Positions 8,823-32,000 of a stretch of DNA of 32,000 nucleotides are shown here, piece by piece. The stretch comes from Planctomycetales bacterium. Its GTDB lineage: Bacteria; 4484-113; JAFGCY01. Where the stretch lies: NCBI GenBank assembly GCA_022646745.1, contig CP060262.1, forward strand, positions 510,001-542,000. Direction: 5' to 3'. The notes under the pieces were generated by a model. The model searched no databases and was not told the DNA's origin. It saw only the letters and a program-made list of their open reading frames with translations. A program made the position numbers and the translations under genes. Position 1 is the stretch's first letter. Each line of letters starts with the position of its first letter.

Positions 8823-11800
8823 TCAGATTGTGCGGACATACTTCACATCCCCACTGATGAGGTCCAGCCAGAAGATGTACCAGCGACCGTCCGGCCCGGT
8901 TGCCAGTTCGGCCCGGCTCCAGCGCTGGTCTTCACCGCCAAGCGGCAGGGGCAGCTGCTCCCACTCGCCGAAGTTGCTCCATTCGAACCAGTTGCGTGCT
9001 TCCGAGTTTGCCGCGGTCAATGAAACGTTGGTCTGGCTGTTTGCCTGCATGTCGCTGACAGTGATGTGCGGGTCGCTTGTAAAGGAGAGTTCCTCCCAGC
9101 CTGGAAGGTACTCAGCCGAGATATCCTTCGAATCCACAAACTCAATGCGCTGCGGCCGTCTTTCAAAGCCGTAATGGACATGCCAGCAGAAGCGAGCGGG
9201 AGATGAATCATTGGTCGTGAAGGCTGCCCCGTCCATACCGCGCGTGGCAAATTCATAACTGCGATCAAAGTCGGTCTGGGTCTGCCAGAGCTGGTATTTC
9301 TGATTGCTGCCCGCCACAAAGATCACATATGTAGAGTAGCTGTTCGCCACGCCGCCTGCCCGCATGAGCACCGCCTGTCCATTGCCATAAATTGCATAAC
9401 CGTCCCAGACCGGCCCGTTGCCAAACAGAAAATCAACAGGGGGAAGGCCATACTGGCTGTAGCGGTACTTCCCTGCTGATAAATTTGAAACATCAAATCC
9501 CAGATATTCGTTTGAATACTGGCAAAACTGCGGCCAGCAGTCGTCGTTTATCGGCGAAGAATATGTTGAGGACCATGCGCCTCCGATCCATTGCCAGACT
9601 TCCGTGCTGTTTCCATCACGGGCACACAGCCTGAAATCCCCGTTATTCAGCACCCCGAGCTGTGCATGGCTGAATCCGTCTAGCGCATCATCCGCGGAAT
9701 AGTCGGTTCCATTCGTGCTCAGGTAATGCTGCACTGCGGAATTCCCTTGCGAAACGATGTGCATCTGGGACGAGTCCGCCAGTGCATGCAGCTGGCTGCC
9801 TTCAAAGCTGGTGGACTCGAAAACAAACACTGGGTCAGGCGGGGCACTGTCTCCCGCGGCATAAAGCCTGACAGCCCCGCTTGCCCCTTGCTCATAGATC
9901 CTGAATTGGCCATTTGGCAATCGGCAGGTCGCGAGGTCCACCCCGCCCTTTGCTTCCTGCAATTCATGCAGGATTCCCCAGCCGGATTCACTGCGTTGCC
10001 AGACGCGCGTACGCCCCTCCGTGTGGTCTGTGATGATTGCATAGACCTCACCTCCAGACGCAAGCAGCCGCGCCTCGGGATAGTCCGAATTCTGCGGATC
10101 AAGTACGGATGGAAAGCTCCAGTTCAGGTCCTCATCCAGCATCTCCGTGTAGAGCTGGTCAATTCCGTCAAAGAAGAGCACGGCGGGCCGGCCGGTCTGT
10201 GGAACTTCACACAATTCGTAGTACTGTGGCGGGACCGGTGCAATCTGATGCGAAGTTGCATTCAACTCCCTGTCCATGCTGATCATCGTCAGGTTCGGGG
10301 CAAGGATGACAATGTCAACCTGGTCGCTAACCGGATTGTAGACTGCCCGGATCGGGCTGGTTGCCGACAGTCCTGTTGCCAATTCCTTGCTTTGGTAATT
10401 CCTCCTGGACTGAGCGACAAGCGTGTAGTTCGGTGCCGTACCGGAAAAGTAGAACACCCAGAGTTCATCTGCCCCGTCGCTTGCGAGCGCAAGGCGATTA
10501 TCAAGGCAGGACTGCTCAATGGAGTCAAACAGTTCCATTGTGGCTCCGTTCCAGGAGTAGATCTTGAAGTAACTATCACCAGAGACGGCGAACACGCTCT
10601 GGGAGTGAAAGTCAGTGAGGCGCGACATGCGGAAGTCGCCAGTGAACGGCAGGGGCAGGAACTTCCAGCTATCCGAACCGTCCGGGGCCGTGCTGACCGC
10701 CGTAATGCCTGGCACAAGCAGGTCCCGGCAGATCAGGGTGCTGCCACCGGCAGGGTAACAGGACGCATCATATCCATCTGCACGTGCAAACTCCGGCGTA
10801 GCTTCAATCGCAGTGCCGGCTTCGCCTTCCCACTGGGGATAGACCTTCAGGTAACGCCTTGCCTGCTGGGTCCGCATGTTGCTCGTGATCCGGAAATCGA
10901 TCCTGTAGCAGCCAGGCTGCAAGGTGAAGGTCTGGACTGCCGCAGCGGACTTGCTCACCGGCATGCCGTAGCCGAAGTTGATTTCATATTCGTCTATAGG
11001 GGTACCGTCAGGGTCAAAACTGCCTGACATGTCGATCTCCACTTCGGCTGGTCCAAGCAGGGGACCGACTGGCATCCGGATGACCGGCACGGGCGTCGCA
11101 TCGCCATTAAACGTGTAGTACCGCCGTTCGACACCGTAGCTGAAGTTGCCATTCCGGTCGAAGCTGTTTACCCGGTACATGTAGATCTCGCCGGGCTCTG
11201 AATCGAGATCCACGAAGTAATTGACGTTAATCGGTTCGGGCATCAGCGCCAGCCAGTCACCGCCCTGCCAGTTGCGCCGTTCCACAACATAGCCGGCGAA
11301 ATCCGGCCGCCAGGCATCAGGGCTCGGGTCCCATGAGATCCTCACGTGGTCTCCCGCAGTGCTTTGCCTGTACATGGAAAGTGCTGCGGGAGCCCTGCCG
11401 CCGGAGTCCACGCCGAGCTGCAGTGAAGTCAGCGTGAAGGAACTGCCTGGGCTGGAAATGACAGCAATATAAATCCTGCCGAAGCGGGATATGTTGTCAG
11501 ACTGGCTGGGATGCAGCGCGGCGGGGTCAAACTCCGCCTCGCCGTCGCCTGACAGCGCTTCACTGAAATGCCAGCGCCCGTCCACGTAGTCCGTCCAGCC
11601 GAGGTGGTAGGTGCCGCTGAGCGACTCGACAGTGCTGCGTAGGGAGGTCGGCGCATTGTCCCCGTCCCAGCCGCTGACTGCCCAGAGTTTCCAGCAGGCC
11701 TGCTCGCCACCAAACTTCAGATCAGCGCCGTTGGGAACCACGCCACTTTCATCGTTGGCAAGACCGGGACCGGTCAGCTCGATGGAGTGCCAGCCGGGTC

Positions 11801-11984: not shown

Positions 11985-12044
11985 GCGATACCTCCACCCG
12001 GATCTGTTCCGGCACAGACATACCAAGCCCGGGGCCGTCCCGCC

Positions 12045-12074
12045 TGGACTGCTGTTGCTTGTCAGACGATTATA
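12045..12074 (-). promoter_or_regulatory. Paralog-A promoter: TATAAT (-10) plus conserved leader box CAACAGCAGTCCA
   Basis: The minus strand reads CGCTATAATCGTCTGACAAGCAACAGCAGTCCA. The TATAAT is at 12074-12069 and the box at 12057-12045. The same 13-mer recurs upstream of paralog B at the same distance from a TATATT. Confidence 0.45.
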
Positions 12075-12170
12075 GCGGTTATCCGTGACCGGAAGTCAGC
12101 TGCAGGAATACAGGCTTACGTCCGGAAGCATGCCAACAGCAGGCAGGCAGGCAACAGTTCAGGCTTGTCC

Positions 12171-15100
12171 CTACAGCGTGCTGAGCACCTTCACTTCATC
12201 CGTCGCCAGGTCGCGATAGAACAGGTGCCAGCGTCCATCCGGCCCGGTGGCCAGCTGGCCCTGGGAGTAGTGGCGGCCGGCCGGCAGGGAGAGAGTCTCC
12301 CAGTCACCGAAGTTGCTCCACTCCAGCAGGTGTTCCGGCCCACTGTTGTCAGATACGAAGGCCACGCTGCACAGCCCGTTGCTGCTCATCGAGCTGACCG
12401 TGCGCCGCAGCTCGCCGGCCTGGAAAAGCGGGTTGCTGAATGGCAGGGTCTCCCAGCTGAGGTTGCCGAACAGGGAATAGCTCACGCGAATCGGGGTGAT
12501 TTCCGGGCCATAGGCCACATGCCAGCAAGGGACGGGAATCGCAAAGGGCTGGGAGACCATGATCGAACCGTCGATCACACGGCTGGCCACGAAATAGTCT
12601 TCGGCAAATGCCATGACCGGATCGCAGACATATTCGATCTCCGGATTACCCTGCTTGATGACACCTAGCTTTGAGTCCTTGATGCCGGTTCCGCCAAATG
12701 CCACCAGGCTGACGGCATCACTTGAATGGATCACCGGCTGGCCGTCCCAGACCGGCAGTCCATCCAGCTGGATGTCGGACTGAGGGTCGCCGGACATCTT
12801 TGTGCGCATGTAGGGTGGCACATTCGTGCGGTCGTCAACGGAGAAGTAGTACGACAGCTCACCTGACAGCAGCGGGCGTACGTCATTCGATGAATCAAGC
12901 GTATGCTCGGCCACGAAGGCATTGCCATCCCAGCGGACCAGCTGCGCGAACCCGGGGGTGTAATAACCCATGAACATGTTGCCAAGTATGTCACTGCAGA
13001 GACGCGGGAAAGAACCGTTGGGAACCACGGGGTCCTCGGTCCAGTTGACGGCATCGCTGCTGTGGAAGTGGTAGATCTTGCCCGCCCGCACCTGCACCAT
13101 GTGCAGCTCATTCGTGGATGAGGAAGCCATCATGTGCAGGCCGTTTCCAACCACGCCGGGCACCACATCCACTTCGCTTTCGCTGTCCGTCGAGGTGATG
13201 TCATCGATCCGCAGATCCCAGCTCGCCAGGTTCATGAAACGGCGGAAGCGGCTATCACCGGGGATGCGCAGCAGTTCCTGCGGCCCGTAGCACTGCGGGA
13301 AGTCAGCCGTGTTGACGACCGTCCAGAGGCCCGCATCATTGCGGTACAGCCTCGCTACACCATTCGTACTGTCCACCAGCTGGGCATACTGCGTGCCATC
13401 CACGCAGAGCAGGTCGCCACCGCCGAACTGCTGGTTGACAGCGTCCACGGTCTGCGGGGCGGACCAGCTGAGCAGGTCCTCGTTGAGCGCGCTGTAGAAG
13501 TGCTGCGTCCCCTGGAACATCAAAACGCAGGGCCGGCCGGTGGCCGGGTCCTGCTCAATGTTCACGGTATTGGTCGCTGCCGCACTGATGACCGCCGTGT
13601 CCATCGAGCCATCCGCATGGCGGCGGATCCAGCTCGCATTGTTGCCTCCATAGATTATGTCCAGCGAATCGCTGACGGGGTCATACTGCATGTCAACGTA
13701 GCCCAGCGTGGGCAGCCCGGCCATGATTACCTGGCTTCCGCCGGGCTGCAGGTCCGTCAGCATCAGGCTGTAATCCAGGCCGTTATTGAACATGTAGGCG
13801 TAGTAGATCTCGTCTGCGGCGTTCGCCGCAATGGCGAAGCGATCCGTGTTCGAGAGGGTATAGGCGTAGTCAAGGTAACCCAGTTTGCTGCCATCCCAGT
13901 AGAAGGCTGTTTCTCGGGTGGGCTGGTACACGCTGAACAGCCAGCCCTGGCTCGTGCGAGCCGGTTCGCTCAGCAGGCCGTTGCCCGTTCCCAGCAGCGG
14001 CAGGTAGTCCCAGCTGCTGCTGCCATCGAGGTGCTGGGTGAGGGCGGTGATGCCGGGCTGCATGATGTCGTAGAACACGAGCGTGCTGCTGCCATCCGGA
14101 TTGTCCACTGCCTTCATGGAGGCCGCGCGCGGGATCGCGTTCGGGCCGCTGACAACGGTGGTGGGATCTGCCTGCCACTGCGGGTAGACCTTCAGGTAGG
14201 CATCCGTCGTGCCGGTCTTGCCATTGCTGAGGCCGGCAATCGTGATGTAGTAGCAACCAGGCTGCAGGGTCACAGTATTCACCGGATCCGGCGAGACAAG
14301 GTATGGCGTGTTGGCCCCGAAGGATATGGAATAGGCCGTGATATCCGTTCCATCAGGGTCATAGCTGTCGCTGAGGTCAATCGTTATCTGGGCCGGCCCA
14401 TGCAGTGGCCCCGTCGGCATTTTCGCAATCATCACAGGCGGTGCATCAAAGGCGGCATCGGCGAACAGGTTCTTGCTCTGCCCGTAGCTTACGTTGCCGG
14501 CTGTGTCCCAGCTGCCGATGCGGTAACGCATGATCTGTCCCGGCGGAATGTCCAGGTCGGTGAAGTGGTTGTCGCGCAGCAGCACAGGGTTCAGCGGCAG
14601 CCAGGCTCCACCTGACTGGGGCTGGCGCTCGATGCTGTACCCGAGGAAGTCCGCGTCATTGAATGACCCGCTGTGCTGCCAGCTGAACATGATGTTGGTT
14701 GCCGAGCTGCCGTCAAAGATCTGGCCGACCGGCAGTGGCCCGTCGCTGCCACCATAGGCCCCGACTTCCATTGCATCCAGGTGCAGGCTGCCACCGGGAG
14801 GCACGACCAGCGCGATGTAGTGCAGTCCCAGTGGGGACGTATATCGCTTTGGGCTGGCAAATGGATCTTCCGGGTCGTACTGCTGCTCTGTGTCGCCATT
14901 GAAGGGACCGAACATCTTCCAGCGGCCGCTGAAGAAATCGGAACAAGCCAGGTAGTACTCCCCGCTGACCGAACTGACCAGGCAGTTGAGTCCGGTCGGG
15001 GCCGAATCGCCCGGCCAGGGTCCGACCGCCCAGATCTTCCAGGCAGCCTGCACGCCCGCATCAAACTGCCAGCCGCCGCCATCCATCACGGCCTGGCTCG

Positions 15101-15368
15101 CCTGCTGGGAGAAGTCCGGCTGGTCCAGTGCAAGTTCATACCATCCCGGAGCTGCCAGCGATGTCGCATGCTGGATACCGAGCGCCTGGGGGACGGCCTC
15201 TCCGAGGCTGCCCATGGAAGGCAGCATCCCCGCATCGACTGATTCCGGCATGGAGTCATCAACACCGGTCGAGGCAGGTCGGGATGAGCAGCCTGACGCA
15301 AGCAATGCTGCAGCAATGAGCAAGGACAGGGCACAGCTGATGCTGGCCCGGATTCGGACTGCAATCAC
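12171..15368 (-). CDS. Paralog B: large lipoprotein of the same family
   Basis: Start refined to GTG 15368 (GGTGGGAG 7 nt upstream; track start TTG 15374 abuts the SD). Signal peptide MIAVRIRASISCALSLLIAAALLASGC. Motifs: AAPGWYEL, WPGDSAPTGLN, SGRWKMFGPF, DFLGYSIERQ...RYRIGSWDTAGN, GPLHGPAQITIDLSDSYDPDGTDITAY, LQPGCY, LKVYPQW, LEWSNFGDWETLSLP...GPDGRWHLFYRD. 1,065 aa. Confidence 0.9.
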   Translation of the reverse strand: MIAVRIRASISCALSLLIAAALLASGCSSRPASTGVDDSMPESVDAGMLPSMGSLGEAVPQALGIQHATSLAAPGWYELALDQPDFSQQASQAVMDGGGWQFDAGVQAAWKIWAVGPWPGDSAPTGLNCLVSSVSGEYYLACSDFFSGRWKMFGPFNGDTEQQYDPEDPFASPKRYTSPLGLHYIALVVPPGGSLHLDAMEVGAYGGSDGPLPVGQIFDGSSATNIMFSWQHSGSFNDADFLGYSIERQPQSGGAWLPLNPVLLRDNHFTDLDIPPGQIMRYRIGSWDTAGNVSYGQSKNLFADAAFDAPPVMIAKMPTGPLHGPAQITIDLSDSYDPDGTDITAYSISFGANTPYLVSPDPVNTVTLQPGCYYITIAGLSNGKTGTTDAYLKVYPQWQADPTTVVSGPNAIPRAASMKAVDNPDGSSTLVFYDIMQPGITALTQHLDGSSSWDYLPLLGTGNGLLSEPARTSQGWLFSVYQPTRETAFYWDGSKLGYLDYAYTLSNTDRFAIAANAADEIYYAYMFNNGLDYSLMLTDLQPGGSQVIMAGLPTLGYVDMQYDPVSDSLDIIYGGNNASWIRRHADGSMDTAVISAAATNTVNIEQDPATGRPCVLMFQGTQHFYSALNEDLLSWSAPQTVDAVNQQFGGGDLLCVDGTQYAQLVDSTNGVARLYRNDAGLWTVVNTADFPQCYGPQELLRIPGDSRFRRFMNLASWDLRIDDITSTDSESEVDVVPGVVGNGLHMMASSSTNELHMVQVRAGKIYHFHSSDAVNWTEDPVVPNGSFPRLCSDILGNMFMGYYTPGFAQLVRWDGNAFVAEHTLDSSNDVRPLLSGELSYYFSVDDRTNVPPYMRTKMSGDPQSDIQLDGLPVWDGQPVIHSSDAVSLVAFGGTGIKDSKLGVIKQGNPEIEYVCDPVMAFAEDYFVASRVIDGSIMVSQPFAIPVPCWHVAYGPEITPIRVSYSLFGNLSWETLPFSNPLFQAGELRRTVSSMSSNGLCSVAFVSDNSGPEHLLEWSNFGDWETLSLPAGRHYSQGQLATGPDGRWHLFYRDLATDEVKVLSTL

Positions 15369-15425
15369 AAGCAAACTCCCACCGACGCTAACCGGATTTC
15401 ACAGAGCCAACCCGTGGCAGTCAGT

Positions 15426-15456
15426 TGGACTGCTGTTGTTTGGCTAGAGAAATATA
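15426..15456 (-). promoter_or_regulatory. Paralog-B promoter: TATATT (-10) plus conserved leader box CAACAGCAGTCCA
   Basis: The minus strand reads GGCTATATTTCTCTAGCCAAACAACAGCAGTCCA. The -10 is at 15456-15451 and the box at 15438-15426. A short CCCC-GCGCA-GGGG hairpin lies immediately upstream. Confidence 0.4.
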
Positions 15457-15496
15457 GCCCCTGCGCGGGGATTGCCGCCGGATTTCCGCACAGCCC

Positions 15497-18400
15497 TCAG
15501 GGGGTACTGACAACCATGATGTCGTCCGTGAGGAGGTCGTGGTAGACGATGTGCCAGCGACCATCCTCCCCGACCATCAGTTCCGGCTTGCTCATGAAGC
15601 GGATGCCCGGCAGTGACAATGCCTGCCAGTCGCCGAAGTTACTCCATTCGAAGTACTGGCGGTCGCCCACGCTGTCGGAGACCAGGCCGACCGCGGTGTA
15701 GCCACGGGCCTGGGCCGCACTGGCAGTTCTTTCAAGGAAAGCAGGCTCATAGAACGGGCCGGATTCCATCCGGAAACTGAGGCTTTCCGCGGTCCCATTG
15801 CCCATGTAGTCAAAATCAACCCGCCTGGCATTGCCAAGCCCATCATAGGCCTGCCAGAAGACTGGCCTGAGTGAGCTCCGGCTGTAGTCAAAGAATGCTG
15901 CACCATCAGCCCAGCGCCCCTCAGTCACCATGTTCCGCTCAACTACAAACCCGGCAGAGACCGAATCCGGTGCTTCGTCGGCTTCATAATCAACCAGGCC
16001 GAAGTATGCTTCGTTGGGCTTGTCGCCACTGTAGTAGCCCAGCACCACCGGCTCATCACCCGGCATCATCACTGCGGCACCTGTCCACAGGGTGCCATGG
16101 CTCCAGGGAACATCGTTGGCATTCAGTCCAGTGACTGCGTAGAGCTGGTCCACGCCGGGCTTGTCATAGAGCAGGATCCGCACGCCCTGTTCCGACACCA
16201 CGGGAATGGTATCCGGCTCTATCGGCAGGAAGCCGGTCTGTGAGAAGCCGGCACCCTCTGTCCAGAAGTTGTAGTTGACCTCGTCATTCTCCACCTGTGC
16301 CAGCATCAGGCTGCCAGCCTCATCCGCGCCGAGCTGCAGGGCATCCGCGTCTCCGAGGTCCGGCATCTCATTCCAGCTGGAGCCGTCATCGCTGCGATAG
16401 TGCCGGAGCTTGCCCTGTACGACCTGGGCCACATGCAGTCCGTCATAGCCTGCAGCCGCGCTCAGGAATCGTCCCTGTGAATCCTGCCCCGGTTCAGCGA
16501 GCAGGGATTCGAACGGTCCACTGCCAGTGCGGCGGTAGGCATGCTTCATGCCATCGGAGGCAAGGTCGAGGATGCCGAGGCTGCCCAGCTCATTGTTGGC
16601 AATCAGTGCATTATTGGAGGCGTTGGCATGCGGCAGCTCACCGATGCTGTCGAAGCCGCCACTGCCGCCGCTGTACATGTGGAGGGTGTCCGCCACGCTG
16701 TCCAGCATGCTGACAACGGCTCCACCATCGAGGAACTCCAGTTCGTGCTGGGAACCGGCGGAGAGTGAACTGTCCACTGAAACCGGAATGGTCCAGTCGG
16801 TATCGCCCTCCATCAGTTCCCTGTACAGGATCTCAACGCCGTCCTTGTAGCAGAGCGCGGGACGGCCGTTGGCGGGATTCAGCGCAATGTCCTGGTGCAG
16901 CACCCAGCTGTCATTCAGCTCCGCCCCGCCAGTGATCATGTTGTCCTTCACACGGGCCCAGTTGAGCTTGTCAGTGGAAAAGATGCAGTCCACACTGTCG
17001 CTAGCCGGGTTGTAGAGGCAGGACAGCACTCGTCCGACGGCAATGTCGTTGACAAGGTTGATGCTGAGGCCGGAGAACAGTTCATGCAGGGTGATGGCAT
17101 GGTTGGTCGCGCCCTCCGTGTAATGCAGCAGCCAGAGCCTGCCCTGGCCATCAGAAGCCAGAGAGCTGTAACTGGAGTCGGTCTCCACAGCCAGGTAGTC
17201 AGTGTATTCCAGCGAGTCGCCATCCCATTCAAGCAGGTGCACGTAGCCACCGAACACTACCGGTGCCACAGGACGGCCATTGTGGATCACGAGGTTGCCA
17301 AGCAGGCCGTAGACCGTTCCGTAGACCGGCAGGAAATCACGCAGGATGCTGCCATCCGGACGGATGCAGATCGCACCGATGCCCGGTACAGTAGTTTCGG
17401 CATAGATGTACAGCTCGCTGCCGTCCGCCGGATCCACGATCCCGCGCGCGTCATAGGAATAGGTCCCGTCGTCTGCACCACTGTCTATCACCACCGGGTC
17501 AAGCCACTGGGGGTGGACACGCAGGTAGCCAAGGGCATAACCGTATTCACCGCCGGCGGCGATCCTGCCGAGCACGCGGTAGCAGCCCGGCTGCACTGTC
17601 AGTTCCAGCACCGCACTGGCGGAATCTATCTTTTCTCCGTCATCTCCGACCTGGAACTGGTAACCGGCGATGATGTCATCGTCGGGGTCGTAGCTGCCGC
17701 TCATGTCGAAGCGGACCGTGGTCGGGCCGTAGAGCGACTGCTGGCTGATTTCCAGCACACCTACGGGAGGCGATCCACCACTGCGGTAGCCGAACTCCCG
17801 CACCGGGCTGTAGGCCATATTGCCTGAGGTATCCACGCTGGCAACGCGGTAGCGGCGGTCGATGCCCTCCACCGCCTCGGTATCCACCCAGGATGTTGCC
17901 TTAACAGGTTGGTCCGTCAGTCTGGAAAATGAAGAACTGCCGATCGGCGCGAACTCCACGAGGTAGCCGGCGAAGTCAGCTTCAATGTGGCTGCGGCTGT
18001 TCGTCCAGGAGAATGCCACCTGGCTGGAGTTGCTGTGGTCGTAGAGATCGTCAACGCGTAATGGGGCGTCATCACCGCCATCGACACCGAGTTCCAGCGC
18101 AAGCAATTCGACCGCGCTGCCCGGCGGGGCTACCATCACGGCGAAATGCCTGTCGAACGTGGACACGCGGGAATCCGGGTCACCATCGTACTCCAGCGTG
18201 GCATCTCCATCCTGCAGTTCACTGAACTGCCAGTGGCCGGATGCGTAGTCAACCCAGCCAAGCACATACGGACCGCTGCCCTCCGTCACGTCGGCGCGCA
18301 GGGAGGTCGGCCGCATGTCATCGGTGAAGCCATCCACCGGCCAGATCCGCCAGGCGCTGTCCGCCTCGTCGAAGAACAGTCCCTCGGCGCCTTCGCTGAC

Positions 18401-18643: not shown

Positions 18644-18645
18644 AA

Positions 18646-22022: not shown

Positions 22023-22034
22023 AATGTACCACAG
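22023..22034 (-). promoter_or_regulatory. Paralog-D promoter-like element CTGTGGTACATT (extended -10)
   Basis: Lies 142 nt upstream of ATG 21881 and 24 nt downstream of the E stop. It matches CTGTGGTAAATT upstream of E and F. Confidence 0.4.
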
Positions 22035-25000: not shown

Positions 25001-25240
25001 CTCATTGCCGCCGAAGTTGCGATACTGCAGGTTTATCGAGTACCAGCCGGGTCCGGCGACGCTCAGGTCACGCCCTGTATCAATCTGCAGTGCTGCAGGG
25101 TCCGGCAGGGTGGCTTCAATGCCTGCTGCCTGATCCGTTCCCGCCGGAGTATCAATCGACTGCGGCACGGAGGAGCCCCCACATGCAGCAAGCATGAGCA
25201 TGCCGGCCAGCAGCACGCAAAGCAACAGGTTCTGCTTCAT
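22058..25240 (-). CDS. Paralog E: large lipoprotein of the same family (D/E/F subfamily)
   Basis: Start refined to ATG 25240 (TCAAGGTGGATCTA-ATG), giving MKQNLLLCVLLAGMLMLAAC. Full set of family motifs. Asp-box TSPDGDTW. C-terminus FFEWSDFGNWEELPVP...GPDGRWHIIYRDFVNDDLRIISTVE. 1,060 aa, the same length as F. Confidence 0.9.
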   Translation of the reverse strand: MKQNLLLCVLLAGMLMLAACGGSSVPQSIDTPAGTDQAAGIEATLPDPAALQIDTGRDLSVAGPGWYSINLQYRNFGGNEQGVTDDLPAIDIAGAGGNGYSVFGVHGFDGDCYPTSLRSDVIDVVGEYYMMYTNYIDGRWMTAGPFTDSVTYEYPEVSQYSDPEILASARHNHYVAILVPDGSSLRLNMLQLGVDGGNEGPFPVVAIAENSNESIISIQWLHSPSFNEPDFAGYSVERAPFPIGEFVTISEENTFDSVFEDPEPGVNEPFMYRVRCWDTAGNNAVSMTIVAIRNVGDMALPTCVVDMPKGPLYGPVEVTFDLSGSYDNDGDVITDYYFDFGSGLGEVSQPDPVLTTTLQPGCYMISFAAKAGGFTGSTLRMLKIYPQWEESSQLVTEGTPLAPRYWLPRSFYDEASEKVVFLFADAATPSLVSMTVDKDGNVDRHDSPQILDGPVVAICEPVFVDGQWLFTIADSDNLIVCGWQDNVIDTNFLANLGVDAGFACMVTDGNGTAWILYYDGIAPYEIKILSINNPGSTLLVTGLVSAGEIDAEWNEDAEAIDLLYSGNTKTEWLRWSPVIGPIGNFVLSGADSEFIDVEQDPATGRPTALFSDGPNVRFADLNPDDATWTAPLPVDPIDPDWPYTKLLYRNGNSYCFVGDNPGDAKLYRRNGANWDVINTADYPGGGYFISMAYNPDLPGFMVMDTASDYATRITQMQEDDSEQQLYISKGWDRNGLELSAISSNSEIHLIHKPLFNYIHWTSPDGDTWTETSDAGVGFGGKIVVDENGEIYTGIANLGVSKLNHWVDPAWVPEDNHSISPNTAPLVYGQGGVMLFGNFDNLAVPAEFNYKVNLTPTQTTFPNDNDVLGGAFAGSNGSNYRIMVLFGASDITDADVGILSTSTGVIDKIFEPGFNRFDDEWTFGRSYEGANFRNAFASTREVFYFSYGPNNTYARMDRNLFGEWDVHEYGIIFQPELLYESRNCVSAMTAWGNTAVGIGSGVMGDVGFFEWSDFGNWEELPVPSGMDNGSLHELVVGPDGRWHIIYRDFVNDDLRIISTVE

Positions 25241-25375
25241 TAGATCCACCTTGATACTAAGTGGAGGCTGCGCCAGTGCGCGAACCTATGGACATACCTT
25301 GCGTGCAGTCCCAGTCCATTCCCTGCGCTGCTGCACTTGCCTTGACTAGCCGAAACCGGCCCAAAACCAGCTCGA

Positions 25376-25410: not shown

Positions 25411-28400
25411 CTATTCCACTGTGCTGATGATGCGCAGGTCATCGTTTACATAGTCGCGGTAGATGATGTGCCAGCGACCGTCGGGGCCGATAACCAGCTC
25501 ATGCAGTGAATCATCGTGCATGCCCTGCGGCAGGGGCAGCTGCTCCCAGTCACCGAAGTTGGACCACTCGAAGAACTCAATGCCCTTCAGCATGCGCGCT
25601 CCGATGGCAACGGATGTGCCACCCCAGGCAGTCGTGGCACTGAGGCTGCGCTTGTTCAGGGCAACCTCGATTTCGCTGGTCGGGAAACCGAAGTTGTCCA
25701 CATCCCACTCGCTGAATGGGTTGCGCAGGATGCGAGCGAAGCCCGCATTCGGTCCGTAGGCAATGTAGAACACCTCTCGCGGGCCAGTGAATCGGTTGTA
25801 ATAGACGGCACCTTCTATGTGCCTTCCGCGCGTCCAGTCATCGTCATAGGCTGCAAAGCTGGGGTCACAGATGTAATCAAGTTCACCGACCTTGTTCATC
25901 ACACCGAGATCACAGTTGTTGGGGTCCGGCGATCCATACAGCACCAGCAGTTTTGCGTTGGCCACATCGATACCGGCAAATGCACCATCGGCGATCTCCG
26001 TGGTCGGTGTATTGAACACAACGGGCACCGCCAGGTTCTCCTTCCAGTGGAATTCATCCGGCACCATGTTGCCATCAAATGTGCCAAACATCAGGGCATT
26101 GTTCTGGCCATAGATGATCGGCACCGTATCTGCGCTGATCGGAGTGTTCTCCACGACAATCCAGGCCGGGTCAACCCAGTGGCGCAGGAAGGCGGTTGCT
26201 CCGTCCTTGAGGCTGGAGTAGATCTCGCCGTTCACGTTGGCAACAATCTTGCCGCCTTCACCGATGCCCGCATCCGATGTCTCGGTCCAGGTGTCGCCGT
26301 CCGGGCTGGTCCAGTGGATGTAGCGGTCAACCGGCTTGTGCATCAGGTGAATTTCCGTGCTTGAGCTGGCTGCGCTGAGTTCCAGCCCGTAGCGGGACCA
26401 GCCGTCACTGGCCCACAGTTCCTGTTCGTCACCGTTCTCCTGCATCAGGGTCAGGCGGGTCCTGTAGTCCAGCGCGGAGTCCAGCACGTAGAATCCGGGC
26501 ACGGTGGGATTGAATGCCATGCTGTTGTAGTAGCCGCCGTCAGCGAAGTCGGCGTCATTAATCACGTCCCAGTTGGCACCATTCCTGCGATATAGCGTGG
26601 AACCACCAGGGTTCTGCCCCAGGTAGCAGTAAGCGTTGCCATCTCGATACAGCAGCTTGGAAAATGTCCAGTCCGGGTCAATCGGATCGACCGGCAGCGG
26701 GGCAGTCCAGGTCATGTTGTCAGGATTCAGTTCGCTGAAACGGATGTTCGGTCCATCAGTGATCAGCGCGGTCGGGCGGCCCGTATCCGGATTATTCTCC
26801 ACATCAACAAAGCCGCTGTCGGCAGCGCTGATGCTGAAACTGCCCATCGGGCCGATCACCGGCGACCAGCGCATCCACTCCGTGCTGCCGTTGCCACTGT
26901 AGACAAGGTCGATGGCTTCCTCTGCCTCATTCCACTCGGCATCGAAGAAGGTTCCCGCCAGCGCATTCGGTACAAGTGTGACTTCTGAAAGTGTATCCAG
27001 GTTGATGATCTTCAGGTCGTAACCGACATTGATCTCCTGGTAAAGCAGCCACACGCTGCCCTGGCCATCAGTCACCATGCTGGTATAGGCCGTGTCCGTG
27101 TTGTTGGTGACAAGGTAGTTGGGGACGATTTCGTTGTCATGCCAGGAGCAGATCATGAATCCGAAGCCATAGGCTGCACCGAACTGCCATGTTCCGTCCA
27201 CATAGACCGGTTCACTCATCAGAACCAGCGGCTCAGGGAACAGGTGCGGGACATCCTTGCGGTCCACGTTTCCGTCCTTGTCAACGGTGATGCTGACCAG
27301 GGAAGGTGTTGACACATCTGAGAACAGGAACACGACCTTCTCTGAATCCGGGTCATAGAACGAACGGGACAGTGAATAGCGCAAGAAAATCGGGGTTCCG
27401 TCGTCAATCAGCTGGCTGTCGGTTTCCCATTCGGGATAGACCTTCAGCATGCGGATGCGTGAATCGGTGTCTCCTCCGATCTTGACGGTGAAGCGCATAA
27501 GGTAGCAACCGGGCTGCAGGGTAACAGTCAGCACAGGGTTAGCCTGGTTGACCTCGCCGAGACCCGGTCCGAAGTTGAAGTAGTAGTCATTGATCGGATC
27601 ACCATCGTTGTCAAACGAGCCCGACATGTCGAAAGTGACCTCAACCGGACCGACCAGCGGCCCCCGCGGCATGTCCACCACACAGACCAGTCCGTCGGAG
27701 ATACCCATGGCCCGCCAGGCGGGGATTGCCATGGAGAGTGCGCTGTTGCCTGATGTATCCCAGGTCCGCACACGGTACATGTAAGTCTTGCCATCTTCGG
27801 CTGAAATATCGTTGTAGTGCGATTCGAAGGTGTTCTCAGTACTGATCGTGCTGAACTCACCAACCGGAAAGTCGGAACGCTCGACCGAGTATCCGGCGAA
27901 GTCAGGGTCGTTGTAGTCCGGGCTGTGGTACCAGACGATTGTGACAACGTCCTCATTGCTCTTGTGGCTCACTGCGAGCACGGGGAATGGTCCCTCGCTG
28001 CCGCCATCCACGCCCAGCTGCAGCATGTCCAGCTGCAGGCTGCTGCCATCCGGCACGAGGATGGCGACGAAGTGGTTCGTATACTTCGAAGCGAGGATCT
28101 CCGGACCGGAGTATTCGGAAACTTCCGGGTACTCATAGGTCACGCTTTCGCTGAAGGGACCCGCTGTCATCCAGCGGCCGTCAACATAATTCGTGTGCAG
28201 CAGGTAATACTCGCCGACGACATCGCTTACATCTGCACGGATGCCCGTGGGATAGCTGTCGCCGTCAAAGCCCTGTGCCCCGAAGATGCAGTAGCCGCTG
28301 CTGCCACTACCGGCGATGTCAATTGCCGGCAGGTCCTCGCTGACTCCCTGCTCCGCCCCACCGAAGTTGCGGTACTGCAGATCGAATGTGTACCAGCCCG

Positions 28401-28593
28401 GCCCGGCGATGCTCAGATCACGCTCGGTATCCGTCTCCAGTGCAGCGGAATCGGGTAGCGCATCTGTCAGTTGAGGTACGCCCATGTTTTGCGAATCAGG
28501 CAGTCCCCCAGTTCCGGAATTCCCTGCGGAACCGCCGCAGGAAATGAGAGCAGCAATCAGTAGAACGGACAGACAGGTCAACAGTCTATGCAT
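25411..28593 (-). CDS. Paralog F: large lipoprotein of the same family (D/E/F subfamily)
   Basis: Start refined to ATG 28593 (TCAAGGTGTACATA-ATG), giving MHRLLTCLSVLLIAALISC (lipobox L-I-S-C). The 60 extra residues in the track ORF are not signal-peptide-like and would span the promoter-like element. Asp-box TSPDGDTW. C-terminus FFEWSNFGDWEQLPLP...GPDGRWHIIYRDYVNDDLRIISTVE. 1,060 aa. Confidence 0.9.
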   Translation of the reverse strand: MHRLLTCLSVLLIAALISCGGSAGNSGTGGLPDSQNMGVPQLTDALPDSAALETDTERDLSIAGPGWYTFDLQYRNFGGAEQGVSEDLPAIDIAGSGSSGYCIFGAQGFDGDSYPTGIRADVSDVVGEYYLLHTNYVDGRWMTAGPFSESVTYEYPEVSEYSGPEILASKYTNHFVAILVPDGSSLQLDMLQLGVDGGSEGPFPVLAVSHKSNEDVVTIVWYHSPDYNDPDFAGYSVERSDFPVGEFSTISTENTFESHYNDISAEDGKTYMYRVRTWDTSGNSALSMAIPAWRAMGISDGLVCVVDMPRGPLVGPVEVTFDMSGSFDNDGDPINDYYFNFGPGLGEVNQANPVLTVTLQPGCYLMRFTVKIGGDTDSRIRMLKVYPEWETDSQLIDDGTPIFLRYSLSRSFYDPDSEKVVFLFSDVSTPSLVSITVDKDGNVDRKDVPHLFPEPLVLMSEPVYVDGTWQFGAAYGFGFMICSWHDNEIVPNYLVTNNTDTAYTSMVTDGQGSVWLLYQEINVGYDLKIINLDTLSEVTLVPNALAGTFFDAEWNEAEEAIDLVYSGNGSTEWMRWSPVIGPMGSFSISAADSGFVDVENNPDTGRPTALITDGPNIRFSELNPDNMTWTAPLPVDPIDPDWTFSKLLYRDGNAYCYLGQNPGGSTLYRRNGANWDVINDADFADGGYYNSMAFNPTVPGFYVLDSALDYRTRLTLMQENGDEQELWASDGWSRYGLELSAASSSTEIHLMHKPVDRYIHWTSPDGDTWTETSDAGIGEGGKIVANVNGEIYSSLKDGATAFLRHWVDPAWIVVENTPISADTVPIIYGQNNALMFGTFDGNMVPDEFHWKENLAVPVVFNTPTTEIADGAFAGIDVANAKLLVLYGSPDPNNCDLGVMNKVGELDYICDPSFAAYDDDWTRGRHIEGAVYYNRFTGPREVFYIAYGPNAGFARILRNPFSEWDVDNFGFPTSEIEVALNKRSLSATTAWGGTSVAIGARMLKGIEFFEWSNFGDWEQLPLPQGMHDDSLHELVIGPDGRWHIIYRDYVNDDLRIISTVE

Positions 28594-28729
28594 TATGTAC
28601 ACCTTGAAGGACGCGGATACGCAATCCGGTGTGAACCGCTGCGACCCGTCATGATTGAAATTGCAATCCCTGCCGGACACCAGCAGAAGGATGCTTGACC
28701 ACACCCACCGGGGTATTTGTGGTGGCCTG

Positions 28730-28741
28730 AATTTACCACAG
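28730..28741 (-). promoter_or_regulatory. Paralog-F promoter-like element CTGTGGTAAATT (extended -10)
   Basis: Lies 137 nt upstream of ATG 28593, directly downstream of a terminator with a U6 tract. Confidence 0.4.
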
Positions 28742-28771
28742 GAAGTAAAAACCCGGTTAAACGCTTCATGC

Positions 28772-28810
28772 AAAAAAGCCGGCCCCTGCGCGCAATGCAG
28801 CAGGAACCGG
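28772..28810 (-). terminator. Rho-independent terminator (minus strand) between G and F
   Basis: Minus-strand RNA: CCGGUUCCUGC-(10-nt loop)-GCAGGGGCCGG followed by CUUUUUUG. Two positions are G-U pairs on the minus-strand RNA but C-A mismatches on the plus strand, which supports a minus-strand function. Confidence 0.7.
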
Positions 28811-28824
28811 CCGCTCTACGGGTA
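28803..28824. repeat. Direct repeat copy 1 (GGAACCGGCcGCTCTACGGGTA)
   Basis: 21/22 identical to 28996-29017. Overlaps one arm of the 28779-28810 terminator hairpin. Confidence 0.8.
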
Positions 28825-28889
28825 ATTGATAAGCTGCCTGAGGGCCGTATTCTACCTGCTGCGCTCATATTCGTAACTTGATTCACAGT

Positions 28890-28936
28890 TAAAGAAACAA
28901 TGAAACTCCGGCAAGCGCCGAAAGCGGATGCCGGAG
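28890..28936 (-). terminator. Second terminator-like hairpin (minus strand) downstream of G
   Basis: CTCCGGCA (28906-28913) pairs with TGCCGGAG (28929-28936), with an inner CGC/GCG extension. On the minus strand it is followed by TTTCATTGTTTCTTTA. Confidence 0.5.
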
Positions 28937-28995
28937 TATACGGAAAGATGAATGAAGACCCGGTGGAAACCGGTTCCGGCCATGGAATCATGCCC

Positions 28996-29017
28996 GGAAC
29001 CGGCAGCTCTACGGGTA
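28996..29017. repeat. Direct repeat copy 2 (GGAACCGGCaGCTCTACGGGTA)
   Basis: 21/22 identical to 28803-28824. Overlaps one arm of the hairpin CCGGTTCCGG (28970-28979) / CCGGAACCGG (28994-29003). Confidence 0.8.
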
Positions 29018-29026
29018 TATGGACAA

Positions 29027-32000
29027 CTAGGCTGCGCCGGGCACGGTGCTGCGGATCATCAGGTCATCCGTCTGCGTGTCCCGGTAGATGATGTGCCAGC
29101 GGCCAAACTGGTCCGCCACCACTTCGTACAGGTGGCCATGCTCGATGTCGGGGAACTCCAGCGGCAGGAAGCCTGACTGGGTGCTCATCTCGAACAGTTC
29201 CACTTCTCCCTGCAGGGTCGAGATCAGGGCAACACCACTGAACATCGGGGTGTTGTCAGCACTGACGATGCGACGTGTCTCACCCTGGTTGCGATCAGTC
29301 AGTCCAACGGGGATTGTCTCAGCATGGAAGCTTGTGCCGGATCGTGTGATCCTCAGCGGGTGGCCATCAGTTCCGGAAGCGGCATAGAAGATGCCACCAC
29401 TGGACGGCATGCCCGGGTAGTAGCCATAGGCTGAGTCGATGGTGCGGCCAATGATGAGCGGATCGGCGTAGGGCATGTTGCCCCATTCGGCGATGAAGTG
29501 CACATCATTGCGAAGCCGGTTGAGGAAGCCGATGGAACCGTTATATCCTGCGGTGCCGCCGTAGATCACCACTCCATCGAAGTTCGTACTGGAGTAGCCA
29601 TCGATCGCACCGTCACGGATCGGCCCGTTGACGTAGGTCTTGTTGAAGGTGTTGCCATCAATCTGGTAGACAACGCCACCATTGCCAAGCTGGTCAGACT
29701 GGTTGAGCATGAACAGGCTGTCGTTGCTGCCACCGACGATCGGCTGTGAGCCATCATTGGCAACCCATGCATTGAGGTCGATGAAGGCACCGCCGCTCCA
29801 CTGCTTCTGCAGGAAGGCGGCGTTGTGCCGGTAGGTCAGGTACGGGCCGCCCTGCTTGTCAGTGCTGAGGCGGATGCCGGTCGGCTCGTTGCCGATCCCG
29901 TCCTCGTAGAGGCTCCATGAATCGCCATAGACGCTGCCGTAGACTGCCATGCCAAGGCCCTGGCGGGTTGCAAGGTAGATGCCGTCCTCGTTGTCCTCGA
30001 CCGTCAGTCCAAGCCCGAGGAAGTCCGTGCCCTCAATCAGGGCCAGTTCCTGCTGCCCGAGCTGGTCACCAAGACGTGAGACGTGCATGCTGTATGCAGT
30101 GCGGTCCATGATGATGGTCTGGCCGTCACCGGGAAGGCGCAGGGCACTGACCTCATAGCCGCCGTCGGTCCAGCCGACCTCCTGGCCGGCGGTCCAGCCG
30201 TTGCCGGTGTCGTAGTAGATCCGCGATTTGTTGCCAGGTGCCCCGGCGAAGATGTAGCTTCCTTCCGCATCGATCACAAGGTCAACGGCAGTGGTCAGCT
30301 GTCCGTTCGGGCCGGTCTGGTTGAAACCGCTCCAGACCAGTGACAGTGCATCACGGTTCGCGTGGAATATGCCGAGGATGTAGCCGATCGCGAGTTCCAT
30401 GCGCTGTGTGTACTCGTTGTACTCAAGATCCAGGGACTCCACGTCCGCGGTGAGGATGTCAACCTTTGTTGATGCACCACCGTCCGGATCCACAACCGCC
30501 CACATGAGCTGGCCATTGTGCGTGTAGACAAGCTCGTACATGCCGCTTTGCGGATTGTATTCAGCATCAAGCAGTCCGGGGTTGATGACAGCTTCATGGA
30601 TCGTGGAGTAATTGAAGCCACCGGCCTGGTAGCCGATGATGTCGTTTCCAAATCCCTGCTGCTGGAATGACCAGAGGTTCCCGTTGCCATCGGTGGCGAG
30701 GTCGGACTGCACATCCCCATTGCTGCCGCTGGAGAAGTAGGTGGCCATCCGGAAACCGTTCGCATCCAGCTCGAGTCCGGTCCGCTGGTTGCCCCAGCGG
30801 GCCTGCAGCAGCAGCTTGCCGTTGAATTCCACCGGCTCACTGATGAAGCGGTACTCACTCGTATCGTTGACAACGGTCTGCCCGTAGAACGGCCAGCTGC
30901 CGAATTCATCCAGGCCCTGCTCCGTCACGTGGCTCGCGATCAGCGCACTGCGCATGCCGTCAAAGTAGAGGGCCACGGGCTCACCCGTCTGCGGGTCGCT
31001 TGCCAGTCGCGGCGTGAAGGCCCGGCGACGCAGGTGGTTGCTCTCAAGGAGCACCCGTGACTCTTCCTCCCAGGTCGGCAGGATCGTCATCGGGAACCAG
31101 CTGTAGGAAGTCTTGTTGTTGCTTACACGGACATCAACCCGGTAGCCGCCGGTCGGCAGCTCGATGCTGAATCGCGGGTCATCCTGGCTGATCTTGATGT
31201 AGTTGGTGCCAACGCTGACCTCATACTGCTCGATCGGGTCTCCGTCGGGGTCATAGGAGCCTGACAGGTCAATCTGCACCGTCGCGGGAAAGGTCAGCGG
31301 GCCGGGGGTATGGCTGACCACGACCACGGGGGGGTTGTCAGCATTCGGGTTCGTGTAGTCCACCACGACGGAACCGGGAGTCTGGCGTCCGGCCGTGTCA
31401 CAGGCGTACACGATGTAGCGGTAGAACTGTCCATCCTCGGCGGTGTCGTCTACGTACTGATTCTCGAGGAATGGCTCACTGTTGAGGAACACGTAGTTGT
31501 CACCGATGTAGTCGGAACGGGCAACGCGGTAGCCTGCGAAGTCCAGGTCCGCATAGCTCGGGCTCTGCCACCAGCTGAGGAAGATGTCCTTGCCGCTGTA
31601 GTCCGGCGACATCGTGACCGGAAAGGGAGCGTCACCGTCATCTCCGGCAATCCTGAATGAACAGGCCTCCACCGTCAGGCTGCCCTCCGGCAGGATCACG
31701 GCGAAGTAGTGCTTGCCAGCCGCGGAAACCCCGGCAAGGGACTCGGGGTAGATGACCTCCTGGCCACCGATGAAGGGACCGAATGTGGTCCAGCGGCCGC
31801 TGCCGAAGTCACTGGCAGCGATGTAGTATTCAGTTGCATCATCCTGCATGTCGAGCTGCACTGCGTCAACGTAGAGGCCAGCCTTGATCTCACTGACGCC
31901 CCAGGCGAACCAGGCGGGACCGTCAGCGGCCTCCAGCAGCAGGCCATCGTTGCCGGGCGTGGCGGAGCTGGAAATGTCCACCAGTCCCATGCCGGTGACC
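29027..32000 (-). CDS. Paralog G: most divergent family member; the N-terminus (signal peptide) lies beyond the right edge
   Basis: The frame stays open through position 32000 (..VTG before the track Met at 31990). Compared with A-F, about 60-90 N-terminal residues are missing. Motifs: DFGSGRWTTFGPF, DFAGYRVARS...FYRYIVYACDTAGR, GPLTFPATVQIDLSGSYDPDGDPIEQY, ILPTWEEE, and C-terminus LFEMS...FGRWHIIYRDTQTDDLMIRSTVPGAA. Confidence 0.85.
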   Translation of the reverse strand, partial: VTGMGLVDISSSATPGNDGLLLEAADGPAWFAWGVSEIKAGLYVDAVQLDMQDDATEYYIAASDFGSGRWTTFGPFIGGQEVIYPESLAGVSAAGKHYFAVILPEGSLTVEACSFRIAGDDGDAPFPVTMSPDYSGKDIFLSWWQSPSYADLDFAGYRVARSDYIGDNYVFLNSEPFLENQYVDDTAEDGQFYRYIVYACDTAGRQTPGSVVVDYTNPNADNPPVVVVSHTPGPLTFPATVQIDLSGSYDPDGDPIEQYEVSVGTNYIKISQDDPRFSIELPTGGYRVDVRVSNNKTSYSWFPMTILPTWEEESRVLLESNHLRRRAFTPRLASDPQTGEPVALYFDGMRSALIASHVTEQGLDEFGSWPFYGQTVVNDTSEYRFISEPVEFNGKLLLQARWGNQRTGLELDANGFRMATYFSSGSNGDVQSDLATDGNGNLWSFQQQGFGNDIIGYQAGGFNYSTIHEAVINPGLLDAEYNPQSGMYELVYTHNGQLMWAVVDPDGGASTKVDILTADVESLDLEYNEYTQRMELAIGYILGIFHANRDALSLVWSGFNQTGPNGQLTTAVDLVIDAEGSYIFAGAPGNKSRIYYDTGNGWTAGQEVGWTDGGYEVSALRLPGDGQTIIMDRTAYSMHVSRLGDQLGQQELALIEGTDFLGLGLTVEDNEDGIYLATRQGLGMAVYGSVYGDSWSLYEDGIGNEPTGIRLSTDKQGGPYLTYRHNAAFLQKQWSGGAFIDLNAWVANDGSQPIVGGSNDSLFMLNQSDQLGNGGVVYQIDGNTFNKTYVNGPIRDGAIDGYSSTNFDGVVIYGGTAGYNGSIGFLNRLRNDVHFIAEWGNMPYADPLIIGRTIDSAYGYYPGMPSSGGIFYAASGTDGHPLRITRSGTSFHAETIPVGLTDRNQGETRRIVSADNTPMFSGVALISTLQGEVELFEMSTQSGFLPLEFPDIEHGHLYEVVADQFGRWHIIYRDTQTDDLMIRSTVPGAA

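Follow-up and report, generated by a model that had tools for sequence, protein, structure and literature searches.

A tandem array of predicted lipoproteins with a conserved stalk and a variable propeller-type head from an undescribed protein family

Seven tandem genes and their predicted lipoprotein products

The stretch of DNA analyzed here (the window, meaning all 32,000 nucleotides [nt] of positions 510,001 to 542,000 of contig CP060262.1 from Planctomycetales bacterium assembly GCA_022646745.1) carries seven long open reading frames (ORFs), A to G, on the minus strand between positions 8823 and 32000. An initial annotation had described them as consecutive paralogs that are homologous along their whole length. 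The ORF scan found them at the coordinates given there, with the longest extents being 8823-12026 for A, 12171-15374 for B, 15497-18676 for C, 18690-21977 for D, 22058-25249 for E, 25411-28773 for F, and from 29027, open to the window end, for G. In all-versus-all BLASTP, every pair aligned over approximately its full length with 23 to 58% amino acid identity and E values from 1e-39 to 0, which bears out the proposed homology. A multiple alignment of A to G showed conserved columns along the entire length, including the C-terminal region of ~670 amino acids. Thus, the similarity is not restricted to generic fibronectin type III (FN3) and PKD modules, a possibility that the initial annotation had raised. 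Copies D, E, and F formed a closer subgroup, with 52 to 58% amino acid identity and ~66 to 69% nucleotide identity, whereas pairs outside this subgroup gave nucleotide matches of just 46 to 127 nt at 69 to 89% identity, nearly all of them at the 3' ends. The copies are old paralogs that fall into five subfamilies and have little nucleotide similarity beyond D/E/F, in agreement with the earlier view that they are not recent duplicates. The six complete copies, A to F, were also intact as claimed, with no frameshifts or stop codons, and the GC content of the array was the same as that of its flanks. With refined start codons, the copies are as follows.

8823..11984, minus strand: copy A (subfamily A), lipoprotein precursor; likely start ATG 11984 (MPMLALRR...LLVGC), with the ORF open to TTG 12026
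12171..15374, minus strand: copy B (subfamily B); the TTG start gives the signal peptide ...LLASGC
15497..18643, minus strand: copy C (subfamily C); start MLAAIMR..., lipobox LLAAC
18690..21881, minus strand: copy D (subfamily D/E/F); start MKHYV..., lipobox VFAAC; corresponds to P0012
22058..25240, minus strand: copy E (subfamily D/E/F); start MKQNLL..., lipobox LAAC; corresponds to P0011; the copy modeled with AlphaFold2
25411..28593, minus strand: copy F (subfamily D/E/F); start MHRLL..., lipobox LISC
29027..32000, minus strand: copy G (subfamily G); the N-terminal ~73 residues lie past the window edge

The 98%-identical ortholog of G, P0185, begins MQRIYCAALALSVLVLTIASCGG. At the refined starts, every complete copy had a basic n-region, a hydrophobic h-region, and a lipobox. 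The sequence pattern [LVI][ASTVI][GAS]C was found after the signal peptide in all six, and each of the lipoboxes read initially (LVGC, ASGC, LAAC, FAAC, LAAC, and LISC) was present in the refined N termini. The lipobox Cys was conserved in 88% of 86 family members, and the exceptions seen were gene calls without an N terminus. A permissive lipobox pattern matched 52 of the 76 full-length relatives listed; most of the remaining 24 still showed an h-region followed by Cys-Gly-Gly, and the others were calls without an N terminus. By these features, A to F and their relatives are predicted lipid-anchored proteins and candidate substrates of Lgt and LspA.

The public gene calls for A (P0043), B (P0001), and the F ortholog (P0013) begin downstream of the signal peptide, and the lipoprotein nature of these proteins is therefore hidden in the database records. 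The 1,026-amino-acid call P0001 has lost its signal peptide in this way; P0002, a B ortholog of 1,066 amino acids with 49% identity, retains the lipobox. The longest-ORF starts of A and F err in the other direction and overshoot. The regions of start codon misplacement for A, B, and F lie at window positions 11985-12026, 15252-15374, and 28594-28773.

Domain architecture and identity of the family

An AlphaFold2 model of copy E, built with a 37-sequence alignment, had a mean predicted local distance difference test (pLDDT) score of 87.9 and a predicted template modeling (pTM) score of 0.82. It contained a signal-peptide helix (residues 2 to 17), a disordered tether of ~40 amino acids (18 to 60), an all-beta N-module (61 to 197), an FN3 domain (198 to 298), a PKD/Ig-like sandwich (299 to 387), and 54 strands across residues 393 to 1058. 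In window coordinates, these parts are as follows.

25181..25240, minus strand: signal peptide of copy E (AlphaFold2)
25061..25180, minus strand: disordered tether (AlphaFold2)
24650..25060, minus strand: modeled jelly-roll N-module (AlphaFold2)
24347..24649, minus strand: FN3 domain (AlphaFold2 and profile match)
24080..24346, minus strand: PKD domain (AlphaFold2)
22061..24079, minus strand: propeller region of ~14 predicted blades (AlphaFold2 and HHalign repeats)

Together with profile matches and internal repeats, the model supported the domain order read earlier from the sequence: lipobox, N-module, FN3, PKD, YPQW hinge, propeller, and C-terminal signature. In a comparison with Protein Data Bank (PDB) sequences, the family profile matched the FN3 of titin at 1e-21 over positions 200 to 298, the same segment that thousands of FN3-repeat proteins match, and the Ig/PKD-like module of the endoglucanase 2c26 at 1.8e-3; there was nothing beyond these FN3 and Ig/PKD-like matches, and a propeller-only profile had no match. 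FN3 (PF00041) was recognized at the profile level, with single sequences below the Pfam threshold. A PKD domain (PF00801/PF18911) is tentatively assigned from the 2c26 match, the motif DxSxSxDxDG...Y.F.FG in the copies, and the modeled beta-sandwich. When Pfam was run on the 37 aligned members, all matches were below threshold: PKD in 11 (best E value, 5e-4), PKD_4 in 8, fn3 in 2, BNR in 2 (best E value, 0.05), and BNR_2 and Reg_prop in 1 each. The family thus falls outside the BNR/Asp-box propellers: in place of repeated SxDxGxTW motifs, only looser [DN]G-x-[WYF] turns recur.

The region called propeller-like at the outset spans ~670 amino acids, and both the modeled strands and an internal repeat of ~47 amino acids support that description. 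In an HHalign self-comparison, the repeat appeared at offsets of 47, 94, 141, and 188 amino acids with a probability of ~95%, and the region therefore holds about 14 four-stranded blades, which is consistent with two tandem propellers. A Foldseek search of the PDB with the whole copy E model gave as top matches the ROS1/Sevenless ectodomains (FN3 plus propellers), DDB1, Elp2, and UTP proteins. The E values were 1e-10 to 1e-14, yet the template modeling (TM) scores were only 0.15 to 0.33 with ~10% identity, and matches of the full model in BFVD were similarly generic (TM scores of 0.33 or less). These whole-model matches are generic fold similarity, with no arguable homology. The N-module modeled alone (pLDDT, 87.7) resembled the carbohydrate-binding modules (CBMs) CBM11, CBM6, CBM29, and CBM16, the lectin-like domains found in phage tailspikes, and domain III of Cry toxins, with Foldseek E values of 6e-4 to 8e-3, TM scores of 0.36 to 0.50, and 9 to 17% identity; the CBMs and the tailspike domains had TM scores of 0.45 to 0.50 at E values of ~1e-3. 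No sequence-level match to CBM families was found with the PDB profile search or Pfam, and the model weakly suggests a jelly roll of the carbohydrate-binding type.

Conservation differed strongly between the parts of the protein. Between subfamilies, identity was 31% in the N-module, 30% in FN3, 41% in PKD, and 44% in the C-terminal 60 residues, while the two propeller halves were 20 to 21% identical. In the 86-member alignment, 71 columns were at least 85% conserved. The conserved residues of the propeller region were mainly G, W, and P, and the polar residues D425, R954, E1017, D1038, R1040, and H1042 were 85 to 93% conserved. The last blades may hold a conserved active or partner site. A loose and permissive pattern, [DN]G-x(1-4)-[WYF], occurred 9 to 14 times per copy; it hints that the conserved Asp/Asn residues could be structural turns, one per blade. 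As read from the alignment, the predicted lipid-anchored stalk is conserved across the family and the propeller head is variable, a pattern that fits what would be expected of a fixed scaffold with diversified binding surfaces.

The initial annotation could place neither the N-module nor the C-terminal signature in a named family, and the searches agree. Pfam, NCBIfam, and PADLOC scans of the window copies (for PADLOC, five copies and the two genes downstream of the array) returned nothing at threshold, there was no match at threshold to glycoside hydrolase (GH), lyase, or peptidase families, and PDB sequences matched only FN3/PKD. In a word-indexed search of 5.8 billion proteins, B had only 10 relatives, and a 16-sequence profile retrieved only 27 of full length. 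Their database names are "hypothetical," "fibronectin type III domain-containing," or "PKD domain-containing," and they carry no recorded Pfam domain. An exhaustive hidden Markov model (HMM) search of 1.84 billion cluster representatives (50% identity clusters) gave about 65 to 70 clusters that match end to end, with lengths of 1,000 to 1,130 amino acids; the remaining matches cover the FN3 segment alone. Judged from these searches, the proteins constitute an unnamed, undescribed family without a Pfam or NCBIfam entry. At 35% identity, it divides into ~30 subfamilies, of which the window copies fill five (A, B, C, D/E/F, and G).

Family members were found in candidate phylum UBP7 and in unclassified metagenome-assembled genomes (MAGs). 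The GTDB species genomes held seven loci in five MAGs (two titled UBP7, one titled "Planctomycetales," and two titled "bacterium"), and JGI metagenomes held 31 loci. Viral contigs contained zero relatives, and a phage origin of the family was rejected for this reason. To our knowledge, UBP7 has no cultured member. In the papers searched, the phylum appeared only in MAG catalogues, with no biology described. Two sister assemblies, JAGRNR and JAGRNT, bear the titles "UBP7 HKST-UBA01" and "UBP7 HKST-UBA03." The HKST MAGs were recovered from a Hong Kong plant with saline activated sludge, from which three UBP7 MAGs were reported (PMC8495973). Database proteins identical to those of the window bear H7A35 locus tags and are encoded on a 4.1-Mb contig whose label reads "Planctomycetales bacterium."

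Turnover, expression, and surroundings of the array

MAG AC1.30 (L007; six copies in the 23 kb retrieved) and HKST-UBA03 (the overlapping L012 and L008 on one contig; at least 10 consecutive copies) had orthologous arrays, both of which end with the same two downstream genes as the window array. The array members have diverged far more than these two genes, whose 591- and 443-amino-acid products were 80% and 94% identical, respectively, in the two other genomes. Against the counterparts in L007, L008, and L012, the best amino acid identity was 83% for copy G, 67 to 76% for E, and ~50% for C (in AC1.30 and HKST-UBA03) and for B, while A reached 29% and had no ortholog in the syntenic arrays.

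In a closer sister genome (ENA contig k141_331530, 328 kb), the gene order was HExxH metallopeptidase-like gene, u1, u2 (split), u3, G, F, E, an extra copy, D, C, and further copies. Its orthologs of G, F, E, D, and C were 98, 95, 75, 96, and 93% identical, respectively, to the window proteins, and the extra copy between E and D (1,065 amino acids) was ~32% identical to every window copy. Because three copies precede G in this genome, the window array very likely extends past position 32000, which lends indirect support to the earlier caution that the window may hold only part of it; the full array probably comprises ten or more genes. The split copy u2 (L015:3226-6390, plus strand) consists of 852- and 184-amino-acid ORFs that cover HMM positions 11-841 and 904-1072. 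The split recurs in independent ENA and Logan assemblies, and u2 would be either a decaying copy or an assembly frameshift. Ahead of the array on the same strand (L054:3983-6379, plus strand), the sister genome encodes a 798-amino-acid secreted protein with a gluzincin-like HEVAH...E motif and a TPR-like tail, which has no Pfam match on record; the matching part of the genome analyzed here falls outside the window.

We calculated nonsynonymous-to-synonymous substitution ratios (dN/dS) by the Nei-Gojobori method for the five ortholog pairs shared with the sister genome, with the following results.

Copy G: dS 0.07, dN/dS 0.16
Copy F: dS 0.42, dN/dS 0.06
Copy E: dS 0.75, dN/dS 0.23
Copy D: dS 0.20, dN/dS 0.10
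Copy C: dS 0.24, dN/dS 0.13

Inside single genes, dS swung from 0.01 to 0.76, and the highest dN/dS in any 150-codon window was 0.42, in the first propeller of E. The ten-fold spread in dS between adjacent genes means that they have different histories, that is, recombination tracts beyond fast protein evolution, and the low dN/dS means that every copy is functional. The earlier suggestion that several versions are independently maintained under selection thus held for all five pairs (dN/dS of 0.06 to 0.23). Overall, the comparison indicates that the array is a mosaic produced by recombination together with whole-gene gain and loss, with its copies under purifying selection. Among relatives, the copy number ranged from 1 to at least 11; many distant relatives are single copy, and some have 2 to 4 copies in tandem.

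Within the population, the window and MAG contig JAGRNS010000003.1 were 99.2% identical over 23 kb. All 182 differences lay within 2179-5700, on the nadA side (~5% divergence), and positions 5700-25251, array included, were 100% identical. Either recombination between strains, with a sharp boundary, or a chimeric join in the MAG would explain the edge of the 2179-5700 segment.

When the window was scanned for generic promoters and terminators, the counts equaled the shuffled expectation. Reading of the intergenic regions revealed an element of the extended -10 form, CTGTGGTA(A/C)ATT, 130 to 150 nt upstream of the starts of D, E, and F. It had 3 matches in the window against 0.14 expected, all of them upstream of D, E, or F, and it also occurs upstream of D/E/F-type genes in related loci. 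The sequence TATAAT is present upstream of A, which probably has a promoter-like element of its own. The elements and the intergenic region between G and F are listed here.

22023..22034, minus strand: promoter-like element CTGTGGTACATT (extended -10 type), ~140 nt upstream of the D start codon
25376..25387, minus strand: promoter-like element CTGTGGTAAATT, upstream of E
28730..28741, minus strand: promoter-like element CTGTGGTAAATT, upstream of F
28594..29026, minus strand: G-F intergenic region, 433 nt, strongly structured (fold z-score of -5.5)

The G-F spacer contains a GC-rich hairpin followed by a U6 run, which is terminator-like, just upstream of the promoter-like element of F. From the elements at D, E, and F, the TATAAT at A, and this structured spacer, we infer separate transcription of several copies. 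The spacer, which is unusually long, also contains two copies of a 21-nt direct repeat, ACCCGTAGAGC(G/T)GCCGGTTCC (28803-28823 and 28996-29016, minus strand), each of which opens a GC-rich hairpin; the repeat may be a remnant of a duplicated 3' end or of a terminator from a lost gene copy.

The two genes that follow the array keep this position, by synteny, at the end of the arrays of two other genomes and are candidate associates of the array.

6958..8733, minus strand: 591-amino-acid secreted protein, directly downstream of A
5292..6623, minus strand: 443-amino-acid Cys-rich secreted protein

Neither had a match in Pfam, NCBIfam, PADLOC, or PDB sequences. Further along, a 304-amino-acid protein (954-1868, minus strand) matches only the beta-propeller part of TolB (E value of 1e-21, far below the equivalog cutoff), without the N-terminal domain of TolB, and is probably a stand-alone WD40-like/TolB-like propeller protein. 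Scans of the window for tRNAs and Rfam families found none, and neither the window nor the flanking regions of related loci contained a SusC/SusD or TonB-dependent transporter.

The genome of the window holds two more copies at a second locus, P0028 (H7A35_01470) and an adjacent 1,086-amino-acid gene, whose neighbors encode PQQ_2-type propeller lipoproteins, a Band_7 protein, and an aldo-keto reductase. This synteny recurs in the distant relatives L009 and L052, and the second locus is probably ancestral, with the large array being a lineage-specific expansion. When ORFs flanking about 40 loci were clustered, most clusters were antisense shadow ORFs; the sole recurrent neighbors were the PQQ-like propeller lipoproteins and the aldo-keto reductase, at the ancestral locus, and no transporter or enzyme partner emerged. 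The second locus is repeatedly bordered by two to three paralogous lipoproteins (L009:1536-4409, L050:2040-4886, and L052:1-5496, all on the minus strand). These PQQ-like neighbors combine PQQ_2/BamB-like propellers with a common N-terminal region of ~300 amino acids that contains D-x-N/D-G repeats. The repeats look dockerin-like by eye, yet Pfam Dockerin_1 matched just one protein at an E value of 0.14, and a dockerin identity was rejected. This leaves the idea that the N-module pairs with them in cohesin-dockerin fashion unsupported, and cohesin was not among the Foldseek matches of the N-module.

Candidate functions and known systems

The reading that we favor, at a probability of about 0.45, is that the family consists of phylum-restricted, lipid-anchored envelope proteins that act as noncatalytic binding modules, with many specificities per cell. 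The stalk and the C-terminal blades would provide common anchoring, folding, or partner contacts, and the divergent propeller surfaces would confer differing ligand specificities, so that one cell could carry roughly ten different heads for polymer or particle capture or for adhesion in activated-sludge flocs. Homologous recombination and the gain and loss of whole genes would reshuffle the array among strains, with every copy kept under purifying selection. The initial annotation had suggested a ligand-binding or antigenic repertoire; its binding half fits the concentration of divergence in the head and the purifying selection, whereas programmed antigenic variation finds no switching features in the array. 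Several observations weigh against our preferred reading. The resemblance of the N-module to CBMs is weak and generic, no dN/dS window at 150-codon resolution gives a positive-selection signature, and no ligand, partner, or transporter emerged. The conserved polar cluster of D425, R954, E1017, D1038, R1040, and H1042 could be an active site. Surface display is putative, and the proteins may be surface exposed or periplasmic. The flanks are also uninformative: here they encode NadA, ClpP, and uncharacterized secreted proteins, and in other loci an aldo-keto reductase, PQQ-like propeller lipoproteins, and peptidases. A stronger version, which we consider unlikely, would make the array a phylum-specific cell-surface recognition system with a fixed stalk and interchangeable double-propeller heads, giving at least ten specificities per cell, with heads swapped between strains as cassettes.

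Slightly less likely than this version is that the proteins are extracytoplasmic enzymes (for example, peptidases or polysaccharide hydrolases or lyases) in which the double propeller would be catalytic, as in GH74, with the jelly roll, FN3, and PKD as ordinary accessory modules and the paralogs differing in substrate. About 14 blades, if they form two tandem propellers, match the GH74 layout, the six polar residues are 85 to 93% conserved, and peptidases adjoin some arrays (the HExxH protein in the sister genome and Peptidase_S9 in L011 and L052). CBM-like, FN3, and PKD modules are commonly combined in secreted glycanases, which would also fit. However, no glycosidase, lyase, or peptidase family was reached at threshold, and BNR, BNR_2, and Reg_prop remained subthreshold in 1 or 2 of 37 members. 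No GH74 structure was among the top 50 Foldseek matches, the putative catalytic domain is the least conserved part (~21% identity), and the loose [DN]G pattern hints that the conserved Asp/Asn residues could be per-blade turns. A periplasm-facing role, as lipoprotein scaffolds or assembly factors of the envelope like the propeller lipoprotein BamB, has poor odds. It would account for the lipobox with Gly at +2, the propeller fold, and the BamB/PQQ_2-type propeller lipoproteins beside the ancestral locus, but housekeeping assembly factors do not typically come as ten or more highly divergent paralogs that turn over between strains, CBM-like, FN3, and PKD modules usually belong to extracellular proteins, and copy number varies from 1 to at least 11 between relatives.

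Two further explanations concern why the genes vary. Phages or grazers could be the main selective driver, the proteins being exposed receptors or decoys in a "flexible island" under negative frequency-dependent selection. In close relatives, strain-level mosaicism, an allele replaced by one with 75% identity, an indel of an entire gene, and a split copy point in this direction, as does the concentration of divergence in the distal head. We consider it improbable, ranking between the enzymatic and periplasmic alternatives, since two MAGs from one population have arrays that are 100% identical, dN/dS stays far below 1 everywhere, and neither viral-contig homologs nor a PADLOC family was found; it also explains variation and not role, and it is compatible with a binding repertoire. 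Programmed antigenic or phase variation, with one copy expressed at a time in the manner of Mycoplasma Vlp/Vsa or Borrelia vls, is largely refuted and by far the least probable. Tandem paralogous lipoprotein genes and evident between-strain recombination would suit it. However, the array contains no homopolymer or simple-sequence tracts, no inverted repeats bracketing promoters (as in invertible promoters), no silent or promoterless cassettes, and no near-identical tracts that could mark conversion between copies, and there is no recombinase gene in the window; such variation is therefore unlikely. Additionally, D, E, F, and probably A have promoter-like elements of their own.

With the binding-module reading, we would have, at chances just short of even, exported binding proteins of modular build, encoded by a multigene family that is itself undescribed and made from familiar domains. 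This overturns no concept and opens no long-standing question. It defines a sizeable family absent from Pfam and NCBIfam (about 65 to 70 clusters), with a constant architecture of ~1,050 to 1,120 amino acids and a confident model, and this appears to be the major expanded family of exported proteins in UBP7. With a gene length of 3.2 kb, at least ten copies take up roughly 1% of a ~4-Mb genome, and the ligands are probably central to the life of these bacteria in sediments and saline activated sludge. Among natural multigene loci, the array is a clean case of diversification by recombination and turnover with each copy under purifying selection, and it offers a set of putative natural double-propeller scaffolds with divergent surfaces. 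If the less likely recognition-system version were true, it would represent a bacterial "receptor repertoire" for diverse partners, prey, or particulate substrates and, besides the new protein family, a new mode of surface diversification without dedicated switching machinery.

Compared with known systems, the family shares the FN3-plus-propeller layout or tandem propellers with ROS1/Sevenless, DDB1, Elp2, and the UTP proteins, which, however, are eukaryotic receptors or intracellular scaffolds with TM scores of 0.15 to 0.33. Mycoplasma Vlp/Vsa and Borrelia Vsp/Vlp are likewise tandem clusters of paralogous lipoproteins with high divergence and between-strain recombination. The proteins described here are three to five times larger and globular, and they lack repeats, invertases, and silent cassettes; their genes are under purifying selection, several with their own promoter-like elements, in a free-living activated-sludge organism. 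Bacteroides hybrid two-component sensors contain two seven-bladed Reg_prop propellers and an Ig-like Y_Y_Y domain and bind oligosaccharides. The double seven-bladed propeller with an Ig-like domain would be a likeness, and glycan recognition is on their side, but Reg_prop is subthreshold in 1 of 37 family members, the domain order is reversed, and the family is lipid anchored without transmembrane, kinase, or regulator parts. GH74 xyloglucanases have two tandem seven-bladed propellers, often with CBMs, and the region of ~670 to 750 amino acids with about 14 blades and the accessory modules of the carbohydrate-binding type are similar. In contrast to GH74, BNR/Asp-box is below threshold in 2 of 37 members, no PDB sequence matches, no GH74 structure is in the Foldseek top 50, and no invariant catalytic acid pair was identified in the family.

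The Bacteroidota surface glycan-binding proteins (SGBPs; SusE/F type) and BtuG, a beta-propeller surface lipoprotein that captures vitamin B12 (PMC6143338), resemble the family in their lipid anchor and flexible tether, an Ig- or FN3-like stalk, a noncatalytic propeller or CBM-like head, and diversification into paralogs. They differ in having no sequence similarity to it, and no SusC/D or TonB-dependent transporter adjoins the family loci examined. BtuG also has a single 7-bladed propeller, while the proteins described here have a region of ~14 blades, belong to phylum UBP7, and are only putatively exported to the surface. Thus, although the genomic context differs for want of a SusC/D/TonB partner, the analogy suggests that the family would work most like the Bacteroidota surface-lipoprotein binding modules.

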